A stretch of DNA of 63,448 bases, taken from IMG/VR virus record IMGVR_UViG_3300023296_000800. One strand, 5' to 3'. The position numbers were made by a program, and so were the translations under genes. Positions 2,739 through 28,387 of the stretch are shown in pieces. The DNA is from a virus. Below the pieces are notes generated by a model. The model searched no databases and was not told the origin of the DNA. It was given only the letters and a program-made list of their open reading frames with translations. The stretch's first letter is position 1, and every line of letters starts with the position of its first letter.

Positions 2739-2815
2739 TGGTACACCCTGCAGGACTCGAACCTGCTACCCTTGGTTTAGAAAACCAATGCTCTATCCAG
2801 ATGAGCTAAGAGTGC
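2739..2815 (-). tRNA. tRNA-Arg(TCT)
   Basis: Cloverleaf; anticodon loop TTTCTAA; CCA encoded. Confidence 0.93.
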
Positions 2816-2822
2816 ATTAATT

Positions 2823-2898
2823 TGGTGCGTCTTGTTGGGATCGAACCAACTACCAGCGGATTAAAAGTCCGATGCTCTTCCAGATGAGCTAAAGACGC
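2823..2898 (-). tRNA. tRNA-Lys(TTT)
   Basis: Cloverleaf; loop CTTTTAA; CCA. Confidence 0.93.
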
Positions 2899-2906
2899 AT
2901 TGTTCT

Positions 2907-2991
2907 TGGTACGAAAGGAGAGACTCGAACTCTCACGGGTTGCCCCACTGGAACCTAAATCCAGCGTGTCTACCAATTTCACCACTCTCGC
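2907..2991 (-). tRNA. tRNA-Leu(TAG)
   Basis: Class II cloverleaf; loop TTTAGGT; CCA. Confidence 0.93.
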
Positions 2992-3057
2992 ATTTCAATT
3001 TATAATAGCATCATAACACAACTTCAGCGTCATGTACACTACTATTTGTTATATTTG

Positions 3058-3132
3058 AGCGTATACTCGGATTCGAACCGAGACTTAAAGGGTGGAAGCC
3101 TTTCGTGCTTAACCGTTAAACACTATACACGC
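3058..3132 (-). tRNA. tRNA-Gly(TCC)
   Basis: Cloverleaf; loop CTTCCAC; U73; followed by CAA rather than CCA. Confidence 0.9.
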
Positions 3133-3147
3133 ATAATTCTTTTCTTT

Positions 3148-3726
3148 CTAACTCACTCCTTCACTAAAATCAATGGCCATCTGTTTGGCATCGTCCATTG
3201 TTTCAGCAACCCACTCACCACGACCTAATGGGTTAATACGATCAATAGGATAAAGTGTTCCGCCTATCGTGTTGCGTAGCTTTTTGTTTGGAACAGTGTC
3301 TGAGTAGTCCCACTTTATATCGTAATACCGTTTACCATCTTGTTCAACAATAATACCATCACATCTACTATTTAGGTGGTATTCATTTGCCAAAAAGTCA
3401 ATCGCGGCTTGTTCTGCCTCTTCATCTGAGCTTGCCACATAATGGCAATCGGCTTTAGTACATGTTGACCCAACTTTAAAACCATAAATTGTTCGATGAC
3501 TCCAACCATACCATTTTTTATCTAGAGGACTATATCCTACGCCATGTGTTAGTTCTTCAGTTATTTCACGTTCAGCTAGGTGTTTTACATCATCTTCCAT
3601 GCCGACATGGGTGATATAACTACCATCAAAAATACTTTCGTACACGTTAGTGGGTGGCTCACTTTTTGGGCCAATCTGTATCATTGTTTTATATGCTACC
3701 TTATCTAACCATTCGGTAGTGTTCAT
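3148..3726 (-). CDS. Hypothetical protein within the tRNA cluster
   Basis: 192-aa ORF with GGAGA RBS; WYGWSHR motif. Confidence 0.75.
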   Translation of the reverse strand: MNTTEWLDKVAYKTMIQIGPKSEPPTNVYESIFDGSYITHVGMEDDVKHLAEREITEELTHGVGYSPLDKKWYGWSHRTIYGFKVGSTCTKADCHYVASSDEEAEQAAIDFLANEYHLNSRCDGIIVEQDGKRYYDIKWDYSDTVPNKKLRNTIGGTLYPIDRINPLGRGEWVAETMDDAKQMAIDFSEGVS

Positions 3727-3752
3727 ACGTCTTTCTCCATTATATAATTGTT

Positions 3753-3826
3753 TGGCATATCAGTGAGGAATCGAACCCCAGTCTAGGGGTTTGGAATCCC
3801 TCGTTCTGCCACTGAACTACTGACAT
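3753..3826 (-). tRNA. tRNA-Trp(CCA)
   Basis: Cloverleaf; loop TTCCAAA; CCA. Confidence 0.9.
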
Positions 3827-3834
3827 ATTAACAT

Positions 3835-3910
3835 TGGGGTGAGCAAAGGGATTCGAACCCTCGTTTTACAGGTTCACAACCTGCGGCTTTACCACTAAGC
3901 TACACTCACC
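3835..3910 (-). tRNA. tRNA-His(GTG)
   Basis: Cloverleaf with G-1:C73 8-bp acceptor; loop TTGTGAA. Confidence 0.92.
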
Positions 3911-3917
3911 ATTAATC

Positions 3918-3994
3918 TGGTCCGTTTATCAGGATTCGAACCTGAAGTCTGACGCTTCGTAGACGCCTGCTCTATCCAGTTGAGCTATAAACGG
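3918..3994 (-). tRNA. tRNA-Arg(ACG)
   Basis: Cloverleaf; loop CTACGAA; CCA. Confidence 0.9.
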
Positions 3995-4001
3995 TCTAAA
4001 T

Positions 4002-4075
4002 TGGCCTGTTTATCAGGGATCAAACCTGCTCAATCTTTGCGCTGAGATTGATGTTCTTCACTGAACAATAAACAG
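4002..4075 (-). ncRNA. Atypical tRNA-like RNA (7-bp anticodon stem, 8-nt loop, no variable region)
   Basis: CTGTTTA/TAAACAG acceptor plus GCCA; GTTC/GAAC D arm; TCAATCT-CAGCGCAA-AGATTGA arm; CAGG-TTTGATC-CCTG T arm. Confidence 0.65.
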
Positions 4076-4082
4076 TCTAAAT

Positions 4083-4159
<77 letters not shown>

Positions 4160-4165
4160 AATAAT

Positions 4166-4242
4166 TGGTCTAGGAGGTAGGATTTGAACCTACGACCTCT
4201 TCGTTCCAAACAAAGCACGCTACCAGACTGCGTTACTCCTAG
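4166..4242 (-). tRNA. tRNA-Pro(TGG), second copy with A37
   Basis: Cloverleaf; loop TTTGGAA; CCA. Confidence 0.88.
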
Positions 4243-4247
4243 ATAAT

Positions 4248-4417
4248 TTGTTATGATGAAAGATGTGGTTGTCGAATTCACAATCTTCACGGAAGTGTTC
4301 CAACTTCTACGATGTCTTACCTATTAGACGACCTTTCAATCAATGTTGGTGCAAACAAACGAGTACTCATCGATCTACACCACATGATCAGAACGCGCAT
4401 CCTGATCAAAGTCTTAA
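4248..4417 (-). ncRNA. Unknown modular ncRNA, copy 1 (tRNA-mimic 3' domain)
   Basis: AAGACTT-hairpin-hairpin-ACATTGATTGAAAGG...CTTTCATCATAACAAA, shared with two neighbours. Confidence 0.7.
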
Positions 4418-4418
4418 A

Positions 4419-4534
4419 TTTGTTATGATGAAAGAGCATGCGTCCATACCTTTTCATCAATGTCGGTGCAAGTTAAAGGCTAGTAAAACTTTTCACCCCC
4501 CGTTTAAAGCGTTTATTCCTTAAACTAAGTCTTA
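4419..4534 (-). ncRNA. Unknown modular ncRNA, copy 2 (tRNA-like domain reduced to one hairpin)
   Basis: Same termini and linker as copies 1 and 3; 5' end lies at the expected +1 of the 4540-4568 promoter. Confidence 0.7.
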
Positions 4535-4539
4535 GTCTT

Positions 4540-4568
4540 ATTGTAATATAATGATTACCCAAAGTCAA
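4540..4568 (-). promoter_or_regulatory. Sigma70-type promoter TTGACT-N17-TACAAT
   Basis: Near-consensus boxes; spacer begins TTGGGTAA. Confidence 0.8.
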
Positions 4569-4595
4569 CCTTTTTCTCGGTTGAATTTCATTAAA

Positions 4596-4740
4596 TTGTT
4601 ATGACTGAAAGGGTGTGGTATCGAACCACACTTCTTTCCGCTCCGGCGCGTCTTACCCATAGACGACCTTTCAATCAATGTCGGATACAATCATGTATTG
4701 TACCGCTCGTTTAAAGTGCGCACTTTAAACAAAGTCTTAA
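4596..4740 (-). ncRNA. Unknown modular ncRNA, copy 3 (tRNA-mimic 3' domain)
   Basis: TGAAAGG/CCTTTCA acceptor-like stem, GTCT/AGAC D arm, GTGTGG-TTCGATA-CCACAC T arm; no anticodon arm or CCA. Confidence 0.7.
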
Positions 4741-4814
4741 ATTAGTGAGGGTCTCTCCCCTCGGTCACGATTTCACTCGTCGGGTCGGCGCCGTCTTCAA
4801 CCGCGCATTAAAGT

Positions 4815-4889
4815 TGGCAGAGATGGGTGGGATCGAACCACCTCCTAGAGGGTTCAAAACCCCCCGCCTTCCCACTTGGCTACATCTCA
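4815..4889 (-). tRNA. tRNA-Gln(TTG)
   Basis: Cloverleaf; loop TTTTGAA; CCA. Confidence 0.9.
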
Positions 4890-4895
4890 ACTAAC

Positions 4896-4970
4896 TGGCT
4901 GGTAAGGTAGGGATCGAACCTACGACCTGGTGATTAACAGTCACCTGCACTGCCGCTGTGCTACTTACCA
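4896..4970 (-). tRNA. tRNA-Asn(GTT)
   Basis: Cloverleaf; loop CTGTTAA; CCA. Confidence 0.93.
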
Positions 4971-4979
4971 TTTGTAAAT

Positions 4980-5055
4980 TGGCGGTCTGGACGAGGATCG
5001 AACTCGCTGATTCTCCGCAGACAACGGAGCGCATTACCACTATTGCTACCAAACC
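4980..5055 (-). tRNA. tRNA-Asp(GTC)
   Basis: Cloverleaf; loop TTGTCTG; G73; CCA. Confidence 0.88.
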
Positions 5056-5091
5056 TTATTATATCTATATATCACTTTCTTACTTACAAAT

Positions 5092-5169
5092 TGGTTGCGG
5101 AGAGTTGGATTCGAACCAACGACCCTCGGATTATGAGTCCGACGCTCTGACCGACTGAGCTATCCCGCA
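5092..5169 (-). tRNA. tRNA-Met(CAT), initiator-like
   Basis: Loop CTCATAA; TCGGA/TCCGA stem and GCGGG acceptor resemble fMet tRNA. Confidence 0.85.
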
Positions 5170-5173
5170 TCAA

Positions 5174-5248
5174 TGGGGGAGTAGCGAGGAGTCGAACCTC
5201 TTTAACCGTGCGGGCAACTTGTTGCATTACCGCCAATAGGACTACTCC
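5174..5248 (-). ncRNA. Atypical CCA-ended tRNA-like RNA (8-bp acceptor / 4-bp T stem, no canonical D or anticodon arm)
   Basis: GGAGTAGT/GCTACTCC plus CCCA; GAGG-TTCGACT-CCTC; central GCGG..GCAAC-AA-GTTGC..CCGC helix. Confidence 0.6.
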
Positions 5249-5254
5249 ATAATC

Positions 5255-5330
5255 TGGTGGAGATATAAGGACTCGAACCTTAAACCGTCTCGTTGCAAAC
5301 GAGATGCACTACCAATTGTGCTATATCCCC
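5255..5330 (-). tRNA. tRNA-Ala(TGC)
   Basis: Cloverleaf; G3:U70; loop TTTGCAA; CCA. Confidence 0.93.
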
Positions 5331-5338
5331 TAAAATCT

Positions 5339-5420
5339 TGGTGGAGGCGATAGGTGTCGAACCTACACACTACTAACAATGATCAACTGTTAGCACACAC
5401 TTCCATCGTGCGAAACCCCC
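5339..5420 (-). ncRNA. tRNA-like RNA with Ala-type acceptor and 8-bp anticodon stem (loop TTGATCA)
   Basis: GGGGGT/GCCTCC-ACCA with G3:U70 and A73; GCTAACAG-TTGATCA-TTGTTAGT; GTAGG-TTCGACA-CCTAT. Confidence 0.7.
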
Positions 5421-5428
5421 TTTGTTCT

Positions 5429-5504
5429 TGGTGGATAGTACAGGCATCGAACCTGTGACCTATGCCTTGTAAGGGCACCGCTCTGCCGTCTGAGCTAACC
5501 ATCC
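5429..5504 (-). tRNA. tRNA-Val(TAC)
   Basis: Cloverleaf; loop CTTACAA; CCA. Confidence 0.93.
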
Positions 5505-5656
5505 TATAATTAATAATATCCTCTAATACCGGCCTGCATAAACACCGAACACCAGAGGATATTAAGTACCTCTTACAATAATAGATTGACACGTATCAAC
5601 TATTATTCTCTATCATCAGATAAGGTCTTTAGAGAATTTATTATCTAATATTACCT

Positions 5657-5685
5657 ATGATATCAGAAAGATAATCCTATGTCAA
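5657..5685 (-). promoter_or_regulatory. Sigma70-type promoter TTGACA-N17-TATCAT
   Basis: Near-consensus boxes inside the tRNA cluster. Confidence 0.75.
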
Positions 5686-5701
5686 CCTTTATCGCAATTT
5701 A

Positions 5702-5960
5702 ATAATCCTCTAATGGTTTCCACGTTCGAGACACTTTCACCATTAGAGGATGTCAGACATACAGGCAGTGATCAATCCTGCCTGGCTACACCATGTCAAC
5801 TCATAGATGTCTATTACACGACCTAGAACTTACACTTTCAGTCTTCGATGCAGACTTTCCTCATACCGACCGTAGTTCGCTTTCGCAGGCTCGATCTTAA
5901 ACCCTTGTTAAGACCCATGATGATCGTGGAGTCCCTCTAATATCCCTTGCAATGGATATC
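5702..5960 (-). ncRNA. Putative structured ncRNA (~260 nt) with TTGATCA-loop hairpin
   Basis: ORF-free, multiple stems; GTGTAGC-CAGGCAG-GATTGATCA-CTGCCTG; long terminal ATCCTCTAATGG/CCATTAGAGGAT helix. Confidence 0.5.
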
Positions 5961-5964
5961 AAAC

Positions 5965-6041
5965 TGGTAGTTCTGGTAGGGATTGAACCTACGACCTTCC
6001 CATTATGAGTGGGATGCTCTGACCAACTGAGCTACAGAACA
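5965..6041 (-). tRNA. tRNA with CAT anticodon (Ile2 or elongator Met)
   Basis: Cloverleaf; loop CTCATAA; body resembles the neighbouring tRNA-Ile(GAT). Confidence 0.85.
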
Positions 6042-6118
6042 ATTAAATCTTTTAATCAGATAGAGCCGTTACCGACAAACACCTCAGCTTAATCTGATTC
6101 CACCGAGGCTATATTAAT

Positions 6119-6193
6119 TGGTAGTTCCGACAGGACTTGAACCTATGTCTGTCGATTATCAGTCGAATGCTCTACCAACTGAGCTACGGAACT
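6119..6193 (-). tRNA. tRNA-Ile(GAT)
   Basis: Cloverleaf; loop CTGATAA; CCA. Confidence 0.9.
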
Positions 6194-6205
6194 ATTAAAT
6201 AATAA

Positions 6206-6302
6206 AGACCCCCAAGTTTGCGGATAGTAAACCATAGCCTCTGGGGGTACAACAGACAGTGATCAACTCTGTCTGGCTACACTGGGCGAGCCTTTGTGTA
6301 GT
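6206..6302 (-). ncRNA. Putative three-stem ncRNA with TTGATCA-loop hairpin
   Basis: CTACAC/GTGTAG stem, CAGACAG-AGTTGATCA-CTGTCTG, ACCCCCAG/TTGGGGGT terminal stem; covaries with 5762-5791. Confidence 0.55.
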
Positions 6303-6308
6303 CTTTTT

Positions 6309-6399
6309 TGGAGGAGAAAGAGGGATTCGAACCCTCGATACGCTATTAACATATAAACCCTTAGCAGGGGTTCGCCTTCAACCACTCAGCCATTTCTCC
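6309..6399 (-). tRNA. tRNA-Ser(GCT)
   Basis: Class II cloverleaf; loop CTGCTAA; CCA. Confidence 0.92.
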
Positions 6400-6406
6400 T
6401 AATAAA

Positions 6407-6490
6407 TGGAAGAGGGAGAGGGATTCGAACCCTCGAAGCTTTCGCGGTGGATTTGCAATCCACCTCCTTTGACCGCTCAGAAACCCCTCT
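6407..6490 (-). tRNA. tRNA-Cys(GCA) with Tyr-like class II body
   Basis: Loop TTGCAAA, U73, CCA; variable arm CGCGAAAGCTTC identical to that of tRNA-Tyr at 6938. Confidence 0.85.
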
Positions 6491-6496
6491 AGCATT

Positions 6497-6585
6497 TGGC
6501 GGAAGATGAAGGATTCGAACCCTCGAAGCTTTTTACACTCTCCTGTTTTCAAAACAGGCGCATTCGGCCGCTCTGCCAATCTTCC
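6497..6585 (-). tRNA. tRNA-Ser(TGA)
   Basis: Class II cloverleaf; loop TTTGAAA; G73; CCA. Confidence 0.92.
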
Positions 6586-6786
6586 TGAAGCTTTATTTAT
6601 CCCAACGAATTTATTTGTATTAATTGGGTTGTCCCTATTCAGAGTGTCACAACTCCATTCTTGTCATCGAAGGGAACACAACGACTAACCTAATTTCAAG
6701 AGGTTCGCAGTAAACGTCTGGGCCTTAACTCCCCCGACTGTCGTTGATTTGCTACGCTGGCTCAACTGACCTAAGCCATTTCAATA

Positions 6787-6861
6787 TGGTACCCTGTAAG
6801 AGACTTGAACTCTTATTGCTGGGTTGAAAACCAAGTGTCCTAACCTTTGGACGAACAGGGC
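6787..6861 (-). tRNA. tRNA-Glu(TTC)
   Basis: Cloverleaf; loop TTTTCAA; CCA. Confidence 0.9.
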
Positions 6862-6937
6862 AATAAATGGTCGCCTATTATCAAACCGGACGATACGGTC
6901 ACCTCTTTCTACTGAATAGTAGGTGAGCATCTTACAT

Positions 6938-7023
6938 TGGTGAAGAGAGTTGGATTCGAACCAACGAAGCTTTCGCGTCAGATTTACAGTCTGATCCTTT
7001 TAACCGGACTCAGGCACCTCTCC
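6938..7023 (-). tRNA. tRNA-Tyr(GTA)
   Basis: Class II cloverleaf; loop CTGTAAA; CCA. Confidence 0.93.
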
Positions 7024-7029
7024 ATTGTT

Positions 7030-7105
7030 TGGTACCGAAACTTGGAATCGAACCAAGGACACGGAGGTCTTCAACCTCCTGCTCTACCAACTGAGCTATC
7101 TCGGT
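7030..7105 (-). tRNA. tRNA-Phe(GAA)
   Basis: Cloverleaf; loop TTGAAGA; CCA. Confidence 0.93.
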
Positions 7106-7112
7106 GTTAATT

Positions 7113-7188
7113 TGGAGCCCAAGATAGGATTTGAACCTACGACATCCTGATTACAAATCAGGCGCTCTGCCAACTGAGCTACTCGGGC
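7113..7188 (-). tRNA. tRNA-Thr(TGT)
   Basis: Cloverleaf; loop TTTGTAA; CCA. Confidence 0.93.
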
Positions 7189-7624: not shown

Positions 7625-7653
7625 ATAATATCGGGCATAAATGAGTTTGTCAA
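7625..7653 (-). promoter_or_regulatory. Sigma70-type promoter TTGACA-N17-TATTAT
   Basis: Near-consensus boxes. Confidence 0.65.
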
Positions 7654-11648: not shown

Positions 11649-12839
11649 CTATCCTTTGATACAAAGAACTTGCTTTATTTCGTGGACTATCTCCACAAGG
11701 TCGCTTTGCGCTTTCATTACATCATCGATAGGCTTATATGCACTTGGTGTTTCGTCGATAATATCTTCATCAATTCGACATTCAACTCCCTTTACGTCCT
11801 CTTCATGTTGCTGTAGTGTCACTAGTTTTTTTGCTTGAGTTCTGGACATCACTCTTCCTGCCCCGTGACTGCAACTATTGAAGGATTCTGGATTTCCAAG
11901 ACCTTTCACTATGAAGGATCTCTGACCCATACTACTAGGGATTATCCCATACTGTCCACGTCTTGCAGATACAGCACCTTTACGAGTTACCCACACATTT
12001 TCGTTGTAGTGATGTTCTTTTTGCACGTAATTGTGGTGGCAGTCAACTGTCAACTCATCGATACTGAACTCTTTCGTGTGCTTTCGTAACACCTTGAGTG
12101 TGTTCTCCATCATTAGTGCGCGGTTCATCTTAGCGAACTCTTGTGCCCAGTTAACAGATTCTATGTACTGATCAAAGTAAGCAGAGCCTTCTGGTAGGTA
12201 AGCTAGGTCAGCATCAGGTAGAGAGACAAAGTACTTTTCCATTTCTTTTTTTGCTTTCTCGATGAAGTATCTTCCTATAGCATTTCCAACTCCTCGACTA
12301 CCAGAGTGTAGCATCACCCATACTGAATCATCAGCTTTCTCAATACAAACCTCTATGAAGTGATTACCACCCCCTAGCGTTCCAAGGTGAGCTATGTTGT
12401 TTGTGTTCTCAACAGGACAAAAATCAAGTATCCATTTAAATCCAGGCTCTAGTTTGTTATTCCACAAATCTGTCACAGCTTTAGGTAGCTGTTGTATGTC
12501 ATGCTTACCTTGCCCTACTGGGACAACCGATTCGATATCAAGACGCAATGCTTTGAGATTGTCTGGTAGGTCTGCCGCATTTAAAGATGTTTTTACTGCT
12601 TGCATACCACAACCCAGATCAACTCCTACGGCAGACGGTATGATAGCTTTCTTTGTTGCTAATACAGTTCCAATAGCACAACCTTTACCTAAGTGTGCGT
12701 CAGGCATTGAGGCTACCCATTTGTGGATGAAGGGCATATCTGCTAAGTTAAGCAGTTGCTCTTTTACGTTATCATCGAATTGAACTCCATCAGACCACGC
12801 TTTGACTATATTTCTTTTACCTTTTAATACTTCCATCAC
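11649..12839 (-). CDS. rtcB: RNA-splicing ligase RtcB
   Basis: MPDAHLGKG, VGVDLGCG, LGTLGGGNHFIE, HSGSRG, HHNY, SHGAGR, DETPSAYK motifs. Confidence 0.97.
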   Translation of the reverse strand: MMEVLKGKRNIVKAWSDGVQFDDNVKEQLLNLADMPFIHKWVASMPDAHLGKGCAIGTVLATKKAIIPSAVGVDLGCGMQAVKTSLNAADLPDNLKALRLDIESVVPVGQGKHDIQQLPKAVTDLWNNKLEPGFKWILDFCPVENTNNIAHLGTLGGGNHFIEVCIEKADDSVWVMLHSGSRGVGNAIGRYFIEKAKKEMEKYFVSLPDADLAYLPEGSAYFDQYIESVNWAQEFAKMNRALMMENTLKVLRKHTKEFSIDELTVDCHHNYVQKEHHYNENVWVTRKGAVSARRGQYGIIPSSMGQRSFIVKGLGNPESFNSCSHGAGRVMSRTQAKKLVTLQQHEEDVKGVECRIDEDIIDETPSAYKPIDDVMKAQSDLVEIVHEIKQVLCIKG

Positions 12840-27508: not shown

Positions 27509-27898
27509 ATGAAAAATATACAAAAAGGTTTTACATTAGTTGAATTAGTAATTGCCGTTGCTTTAGTTGGGGTGCTATCTGTTGTAGCAATTCCCAAGAT
27601 AACAGGCGTATCTGATGATGCACGTGTGGCCGCTTTGAAAGGGGTTGCAGGAGCATTATCATCTGCCAGTGTTCGTAACTATGCAATACGTGGTGCAAAC
27701 AATGCTAATGGTTATGAAGTTACTCAGTGTGAAGATGTAGTAGATATACTTGAAGGTGGGGTGTTGCCTCAGGGATTTGAACTTGCAGGAACAGATGGAG
27801 TCGATCCAGTGGCTGCTGAAGCAAAGGTTGAATGTACATTAAGTACTACAACTACCCCAGTACAAACCACAACATATACTGCTTACGGTATCGCCTAG
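27509..27898 (+). CDS. Type IV prepilin, MSHA/PilA-like (pilin 1)
   Basis: MKNIQKG|FTLVELVIAVALVGVLSVVAIP class III signal with E5 and P22; AR.AALKGVAGAL; two C-terminal Cys. Confidence 0.9.
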   Translation: MKNIQKGFTLVELVIAVALVGVLSVVAIPKITGVSDDARVAALKGVAGALSSASVRNYAIRGANNANGYEVTQCEDVVDILEGGVLPQGFELAGTDGVDPVAAEAKVECTLSTTTTPVQTTTYTAYGIA

Positions 27899-27988
27899 AT
27901 TTAATATTCGAATCGGGCTAGAAACACTAAATAGATATGATGATCCTTATTTAAGGATCCAAACATAACTTACATAATGGAGTAACAA

Positions 27989-28387
27989 ATGAAAAATATT
28001 AAACGATCTAAGAAAGGTTTTACATTAATTGAATTAGTAGTATCAGTTGCAGTAGTTGGTGTGTTGGCAGTTGTTGCCGCACCAAAGGTTGCAGGAGTTG
28101 CAGGCGATGCTCGGACTGCGGGAATCGATGGTATGGCTGCTTCATTGGCAACTGCATCAAGCATGAACTACAACGAACGAAAGAAGTTATCAACAAACGG
28201 TAATGCGGTAATTACTTGTACCGATACTCCTGCTTCACTAGCTGGTGGAACTCTGCCAGGCGCTTATGTATTCACATTGGATGACGGAGATGTTGAAATT
28301 CTGCCAGGCGAGACAGGACTTTGTAGAATCAGTACCCTTAGCACACCAGTTGCTACTGCTGAATATTTAGCATACGGCATAGAGTAA
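27989..28387 (+). CDS. Type IV prepilin, MSHA/PilA-like (pilin 2)
   Basis: MKNIKRSKKG|FTLIELVVSVAVVGVLAVVAAP; paralog of pilin 1 with two Cys and AYGI end. Confidence 0.9.
   Translation: MKNIKRSKKGFTLIELVVSVAVVGVLAVVAAPKVAGVAGDARTAGIDGMAASLATASSMNYNERKKLSTNGNAVITCTDTPASLAGGTLPGAYVFTLDDGDVEILPGETGLCRISTLSTPVATAEYLAYGIE

Follow-up and report, generated by a model that had tools for sequence, protein, structure and literature searches.

An RNA encoded between two tRNA genes of a phage tRNA array belongs to a Proteobacterial RNA family with a covarying multi-hairpin fold, and the bacterial RNA adjoins a solitary PemK/MazF (YifN-type) gene whose modelled product has a MazF fold. The bacterial RNA is likely an antitoxin that binds this protein, and the phage RNA a decoy cut from a tRNA precursor, a reading that we hold with about even confidence; toxicity, binding, an anti-phage role, processing and decoy action are what we infer from the arrangement described below.

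The virus record is contained in salt-lake metagenome runs, is 77.6 kb long and 22% complete, and includes the window, the whole stretch of 63,448 nucleotides analysed here. Its minus strand carries an array of 25 ARAGORN-called tRNA genes (window 2739-7188), in which Rfam found only tRNAs above its cut-offs. The original prediction held that three different RNAs of this array share a hairpin with the self-complementary loop UUGAUCA and may assemble through it. Checking the sequence confirmed three UUGAUCA hairpins on the minus strand, in elements labelled A (6200-6305), B (core 5762-5791) and C (5339-5420), none of which had an Rfam match at E ≤ 10. The stretches 5761-5791 and 6252-6282 are identical at 27 of 31 bases (87%). 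As had been described, the A and B hairpins differ at two bases on the 5' side of the loop and at one stem pair, a compensatory change between G-C and A-U; the U after the stem is common to both. Folding gave a long terminal helix after each of the hairpins at 5762 and 6253, and a cloverleaf for 5339-5420 with UUGAUCA at the anticodon position. The heptamer itself is not rare (33 matches in the window vs 16.7 expected); TGATCA closing a stem of at least 7 pairs was found only at these three sites in the whole 77.6-kb contig. What did not hold is the shared hairpin: UUGAUCA is common to all three, but the loops of A and B comprise 9 nt and close stems of 7 bp, and that of C comprises 7 nt on a 9-bp stem, so that they are not one hairpin. 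Four DNA sequencing runs, with patchy coverage, showed no variants in the hairpins. The features concerned are as follows.

6200..6305, minus strand: element A, a shortened, toxin-less PemK-linked RNA between tRNA-Ser(GCT) and tRNA-Ile(GAT)
6276..6304, minus strand: core of A, AGA followed by hairpin 1 (CUACAC/GUGUAG, loop AAAGGCUCGCCCA) and C, in a layout identical to that of the bacterial RNA
6253..6275, minus strand: hairpin 2 of A, 7 bp with loop AG-UUGAUCA, occupying the place of the bacterial GAYRACAA hairpin
6195..6248, minus strand: the terminal helix of A with its U-rich tail, which align with the terminator and tail of the family
6119..6193, minus strand: true tRNA-Ile(GAT) with anticodon loop CUGAUAA, immediately 3' of element A
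5762..5791, minus strand: core of B, GUGUAGC and hairpin 2 (loop GA-UUGAUCA), a partial duplicate of A in which hairpin 1 is not kept
5705..5751, minus strand: terminal helix of B, from sequence, fold and alignment, whose loop holds GUCUCGAA (5725-5732)
5700..5964, minus strand: non-coding stretch holding B, after tRNA-Met, no Rfam match, its first 150 nt at the 5' end carrying no assigned element
5339..5420, minus strand: C, a tRNA-like RNA with G3-U70, A73, CCA, a D stem, a 9-bp anticodon-position stem and loop UUGAUCA at 5380-5386
7625..7653, minus strand: sigma-70-like promoter, 11/12 match, upstream of the tRNA block with A and B (from a promoter scan whose total number of sites is at chance level)
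5657..5685, minus strand: sigma-70-like promoter, 11/12 match with TG, between B and the block of C (same scan)
6660..6669, minus strand: CGAUGACAAG, the bacterial hairpin-2 tip, inside 6586-6786, with weak matches of the models R1 and R2 described below
11649..12839, minus strand: RtcB RNA ligase gene (Pfam PF01139, E 1e-124), an RNA-repair context

The key part of A lies directly upstream of the 6253 hairpin and consists of AGAC and a hairpin whose loop is AAAGGNNCGCCCA. Searches with exact or nearly exact versions of the hairpins had no match in viral contigs or in 25 related phage records, and BLAST of the region against cultured phages gave tRNA matches only; 25 loci reached through neighbouring proteins were without arrays, and the arrays of nine of those related phage records did not contain these hairpins. 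A loose pattern (GTGTAGC, nine bases, TTGATCA) returned 120 loci from 49 of the 64 parts of the viral collection. Only one, L105, had all 7 of 7 pairs, and the part that it has in common with A is not the stem but the upstream AGAC-TACAC-AAAGG-NN-CGCCCA-GTGTAGC. Four matches with 6 of 7 pairs were dropped, and the two of them that were tested (L117 and L073) were unmatched by R1. The core was present in 11 of 18 viral loci, the other 7 having been dropped for absence of the flanking stem, and in 38 metagenome loci and 19 bacterial genome loci.

In Proteobacteria the core lies in the middle of an RNA of about 125-140 nt that consists of hairpin 0, a linker ending in AGAC, hairpin 1, one base, hairpin 2 with the tip GAYRACAA, a terminator-like hairpin and a tail whose sequence complements that of the tip. 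Changes on both sides of a pair were found in 27 of 39 pairs among 30 sequences, a number reached by 0 of 500 shuffles, and in 30 of 32 pairs of a diverse, model-fitted set. The hairpin-2 loop and the tail also covary (cognate run 5.7 vs non-cognate 4.0 nt), with pair 99-159 being GC in 17 and AU in 10. Promoter-like hexamers, read by eye and unscored, occur in the stretch that separates the RNA from the stop codon upstream of it. No Rfam family matched the bacterial or phage RNA, the Rfam pemK motif had no match on 14 loci (E ≤ 5) or on the window array (E ≤ 10), and no solved structure was matched by sequence. Likenesses to RNase P, hammerhead, HDV-like, pistol, twister and SRP Alu RNAs were dropped, Rfam giving no match, and so were REP elements, which had no Rfam match and whose GTAG is lost in distant members.

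Covariance model R1 matched A with 28.3 bits (E 2e-8) as its sole match in 20 kb, a score that is partly circular because R1 was trained on sequences from an A-derived pattern. With the broader model R2, A ranked first in 30 kb at a weak 15.6 bits (E 0.002) and was missed when filters were on. Five other weak R1 matches were terminator-like, had no pemK and were set aside. Of the family features, A retains AGAC, hairpin 1 and the GC junction, together with a short form of hairpin 2, the terminal helix and a family-like tail, and its hairpin-1 loop is of the type typical of the closest PemK protein subclade. Given that it has neither hairpin 0 nor the tail-pairing GAYRACAA loop, A is a truncated variant. 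The family layout (AGAC, hairpin 1, GC, hairpin 2, terminal helix) is present in A, from GUGUAGC onward only in B, and absent from C.

The bacterial RNA keeps company with one gene. Among 57 distinct core matches, a PemK-like ORF lay upstream on the same strand in 26 and was convergent in one (27/57), and it lay just upstream in 15 of the 19 bacterial genome matches. Conversely, a protein profile run over three partly overlapping genome samples (400, 401 and 301) yielded 16 non-seed loci, 14 of which had an RNA model match beside the gene (2 of the 14 were already in the collection); the two misses were a broken gene fragment and a gene at a contig end. When a viral pattern built on the RNA only had given 120 loci and 80 of them were searched with the RNA model, a PemK gene accompanied 13 of 17 model matches (eight lineages) and 0 of 63 non-matches. 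The RNA is mostly downstream of the gene, convergent with it in L268 and L321, and upstream, with a terminator, in L355. Linkage that survives three gene orders points to action in trans. Full-length RNAs with no gene in the fetched flank were seen in bacteria (L303, L314, L316 and L317) and in viruses (L361, L414, L434, and also L362, whose sequence ends early); three such orphan RNAs sit by other defence-like or antitoxin genes.

The partner protein matches Pfam PemK_toxin (PF02452, E 3e-12) and no other Pfam or any PADLOC family, and the source records name it PemK/MazF or YifN. Its model has a pLDDT of 69, with the best Foldseek matches all being MazF proteins (E 2e-6), and the RP and ST motifs are invariant in 22 protein sequences. 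In size, the pair amounts to one 144-residue gene and one 130-nt RNA. No antitoxin-like ORF was found on the scanned upstream side in 26 of 27 same-strand loci: 11 of the 27 had no ORF ending within 400 nt upstream, and of the other 16, 14 were scanned and two duplicates dropped. One scanned locus had antitoxin-like HTH matches, 157 nt away.

Several arrangements of the cassette were seen besides. It lies between dnaN and recF in a Sphingomonas record (L324, 701-1283) and elsewhere adjoins nrdB, yqeY and other housekeeping genes, and at the genome end of tailless Vibrio phages pemK and the RNA are found together with a repressor (L328, 701-1388). In a more distant PemK subclade, carried by plasmids of E. 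coli and Pseudomonas (L322, 1138-1303; L326, 1168-1298), the gene precedes a different and shorter RNA whose ends are promoter-like and terminator-like and which scores weakly with R2 (16 and 14 bits).

We reasoned that an RNA with this layout could instead be a c4/CI-type regulator, working as antisense or in antitermination by loop-tail pairing, or the end of a mobile cassette, with the phage copies being regulatory or passengers; we regard this as unlikely, if worth keeping in mind. The layout does resemble that of the P4 immunity-region RNA and of c4 of P1 (Rfam C4, RF01695) in its order: a hairpin and a GGG loop come first, followed by a motif whose pairing partner is the tail beyond a terminator-like hairpin. 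In the present family the loop covaries with the tail, and the neighbours of the cassette differ in each genome. However, no model matched in either direction: RF01695 gave nothing above 45 bits on the window array or the loci searched, one further search having run without a working positive control, while R1 and R2 did not match P4 and R1 did not match P1 c4. In the part of PMC2864571 that concerns us, c4 is listed only in a table. Moreover, the neighbour here is pemK rather than icd or ant, target sites were found neither upstream nor downstream, the RNA had no antisense fit to the pemK start region (mean z −0.1, 22 loci), and the genes downstream are unrelated and often in the opposite direction. 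The phage copies also drop the loop-tail pair and yet keep hairpin 1.

In the reading preferred here, the bacterial RNA, probably a separate transcript in view of the promoter and terminator read from its sequence, would act on the protein and not on the pemK mRNA, and would bind and silence the predicted RNA-cutting toxin. Phage shut-off of host transcription would then free the toxin, as in ToxIN, and A, excised from the tRNA precursor that has tRNA-Ser and tRNA-Ile on either side of it, would replenish the antitoxin as a decoy. That the phage has a copy of a toxin-linked RNA suggests that it likely uses it as a decoy antidote, and AGAC-hairpin 1-GC is likely the handle bound by the protein. 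Co-occurrence does not show the direction in which the RNA acts. No pemK gene was found in the contig, which is 22% complete, so that the phage may encode its own toxin elsewhere. Of the earlier suggestion that all these RNAs bind one protein, the candidate now has a name, the host PemK/MazF protein whose gene travels with the RNA family, and its binding is a prediction.

Phage copies of the core sit between unrelated genes and sometimes adjoin tRNA genes. Nearly all of them keep AGAC-hairpin 1-GC, with hairpin 1 almost letter-for-letter the same in many unrelated phages; the loop-tail pair is lost, and hairpin 2 is free to vary or absent. In three of them (L289, L227 and L196) the core is fused to a tRNA gene or lies beside one. 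Such copies could be decaying relics from a host cassette with no present function, and the truncated hairpin 2, the lost hairpin 0, the partial state of B, the modest single-sequence fold z-scores of A (−1.6) and C (−1.7) and the absence of the hairpins from the arrays of the nine related records would fit decay. We consider it very improbable, given that hairpin 1 is so strictly kept and that compensatory changes accompany an invariant loop across four sources.

These four sources carry five hairpins with an invariant UUGAUCA (A, B, L197, L286 and L290), in which 35 of 35 stem cells are paired and double changes occur in 3 of 7 pairs; L286 and L290 were retrieved by a pattern without the loop. 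A loop that is invariant while its stem covaries indicates that it is selected in one phage-side subgroup. UUGAUCA occupies the position of the bacterial GAYRACAA and is one of the forms that the hairpin-2 loop takes on the phage side. None of its sources has pemK in the flank (for L286, only 263 nt upstream), and the loop occurs in none of the PemK-linked RNAs seen (0 of 34 in one set and 0 of 27 in another).

Another reading, which takes up the original prediction, makes kissing the main job of this loop: copies of one RNA, or different ones of the three, would pair and build an RNA assembly, for instance a split tmRNA. The six-base palindrome UGAUCA is indeed invariant in the five hairpins, symmetric GAUC-centred kissing loops have a precedent in OLE RNA (in the portion of PMC12286853 that describes them), and the palindrome could stand in for the host loop-tail pairing; host RNA L349, with a palindromic loop, has no terminator. 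What was not borne out, for the family as a whole, is a loop that stays palindromic in homologues: it is non-palindromic in 31 of 34 host RNAs and in other phage copies, the 3 palindromic host loops being near chance (3.1% of random heptamers hold a six-base palindrome). The duplex is also weak, at −5.0 kcal/mol vs −7.9 and −10.9 for the HIV-1 hexamers. Neither a tmRNA nor a piece of one was found by ARAGORN or Rfam, and the picture of a tRNA-like module docking a coding piece is unsupported: C has a D arm, and its long arm is closed and leaves no strands free for docking. No change from one palindrome to another was seen, so that conservation cannot separate kissing from protein binding. As the main role of the loop, kissing has a small probability in our estimate, and it may coexist with the decoy role.

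A further possibility, hardly more probable than kissing, is that UUGAUCA imitates the anticodon loop of tRNA-Ile, in which case A, B and C would act as substrate decoys that draw off an anticodon nuclease, possibly PemK itself. The loop differs from that of the window tRNA-Ile (CUGAUAA) at 2 of 7 positions, C displays it at the anticodon position, A adjoins tRNA-Ile, 29 of 34 host hairpin-2 loops begin with GAU, an RtcB gene is nearby, and one MazF is known to cleave tRNA anticodons (PMC4756823, in excerpt). However, the 9-nt loops of A and B on 7-bp stems are unlike an anticodon arm, hairpin 1 is left unaccounted for, the contig, at 22% complete, contains no TROVE (Ro60) gene, and YrlA had no match on A, B or C; the proposal overlaps with the decoy reading preferred here. 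Sequence cannot tell kissing, anticodon mimicry and protein binding apart.

Elements B and C would show the UUGAUCA loop on other scaffolds, and their roles are less sure than that of A; neither R1 nor R2 matches them. In B, GUCUCGAA of the terminal helix is the complement of the family linker UUCGAGAC. Apart from a bulge, the T loop of C also complements this terminal-helix loop (5725-5732). C is labelled tRNA-Ile(GAT) by ARAGORN and is not matched by the Rfam tRNA model at E ≤ 10; it carries alanine identity (G3-U70, A73, CCA) and has in common with A and B only the loop and a similar stem start. A pattern for C gave 35 loci, five of them permuted tmRNAs with TTGATCA elsewhere in the molecule; none is homologous, and C is thus without a known relative.

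Type III toxin-antitoxin systems provide the nearest precedent: a ribonuclease of MazF/Kid fold has a non-coding RNA as its partner instead of a protein antitoxin, and this RNA is encoded as short tandem repeats that precede the toxin gene in the same operon, with a terminator between the two (PMC5086642). As in ToxIN, CptIN, TenpIN and AbiQ, a protein with a MazF fold in its predicted model has an RNA partner here, the pairing being genomic. By contrast, the RNA here is one multi-hairpin unit, mostly downstream and with its own promoter-like site, so that the defining layout is absent, and the protein falls in PemK_toxin. PMC3475682 describes a non-coding mimic of a host RNA antitoxin, the pseudo-ToxI of phage PhiTE, which worked after repeat expansion in escape mutants, whereas the putative mimics here appear singly and shortened in many unrelated wild phages, some of them in tRNA arrays. 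[quoted passage not shown] That system has another protein family and RNA motif, with RCd22 upstream and comprising two repeats, and the lone weak abiF match, at 27 bits (cut-off 37), is beside the L290 core and not on it. OLE, ROOL and GOLLD are phage or bacterial RNAs with symmetric kissing loops, the last two often near tRNA islands (again PMC12286853, in part), but they are far larger, Rfam matched none of the RNAs here, and palindrome-to-palindrome covariation was not seen.

In the literature listings, with subscription papers and preprint supplements outside their scope, no earlier description was found. If the antitoxin and decoy reading is true, it adds an RNA-controlled MazF toxin family with a new gene order and explains the missing protein antitoxin of these solitary 'type II' pemK genes. 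It would also make antitoxin RNA mimicry common in wild phages rather than a laboratory rarity and give a function to some RNAs in phage tRNA arrays. A more far-reaching version, which we advance tentatively and think probably wrong in at least some part, is a widespread and as yet undescribed anti-phage toxin-antitoxin family of Proteobacteria (YifN-type MazF and a multi-hairpin RNA transcribed on its own) with minimal decoys in many unrelated phages, in which, for the present lineage, UUGAUCA would replace the host loop-tail pairing so that the decoy dimerises to fit a two-fold toxin, one copy being placed on an alanine-chargeable tRNA scaffold.

The array holds further structured RNAs. A stretch of about 200 nt (window 6586-6786, minus) contains the family motifs UGUUCCC and CGAUGACAAG; its site at 6660..6669 is the sole one closed by 3 pairs among 12 GAYRACAA sites in the contig, and this hairpin is absent from the minimum-energy fold. 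At window 4243-4730 (minus), three related repeats run through AAGAC, a pair of hairpins, ACAUU, a long helix whose ends are AAAGG/CUUU, and AUAACAA. In two of them the long helix encloses tRNA-like D and T arms, and two of the first-hairpin loops contain GCGC palindromes; the layout echoes that of the PemK-linked RNA family, and R1 and R2 had no match there on the same strand. A tRNA-like RNA at 3998-4075 (minus), called by neither ARAGORN nor Rfam, resembles the neighbouring tRNA-Arg and has a 7-bp arm with loop CAGCGCAA, and another at 5174-5248 (minus) has a CCA end and a long central arm, no D arm and only a weak tRNA-Sec match. An RNA at 5505-5640 (minus), directly after a promoter, begins with AAAGAC and has a terminal helix similar to that of B (AUCCUCU...AUUAGAGGAU). 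Arrays of related large phages (L061-L069) likewise contain many other unassigned structured spacers, some conserved among them. Away from the array, two tandem ORFs at window 27509-28387 (plus) look pilin-like from their sequence alone, and nearby ORFs are putatively ClpP-, ClpX- and small heat-shock-like.
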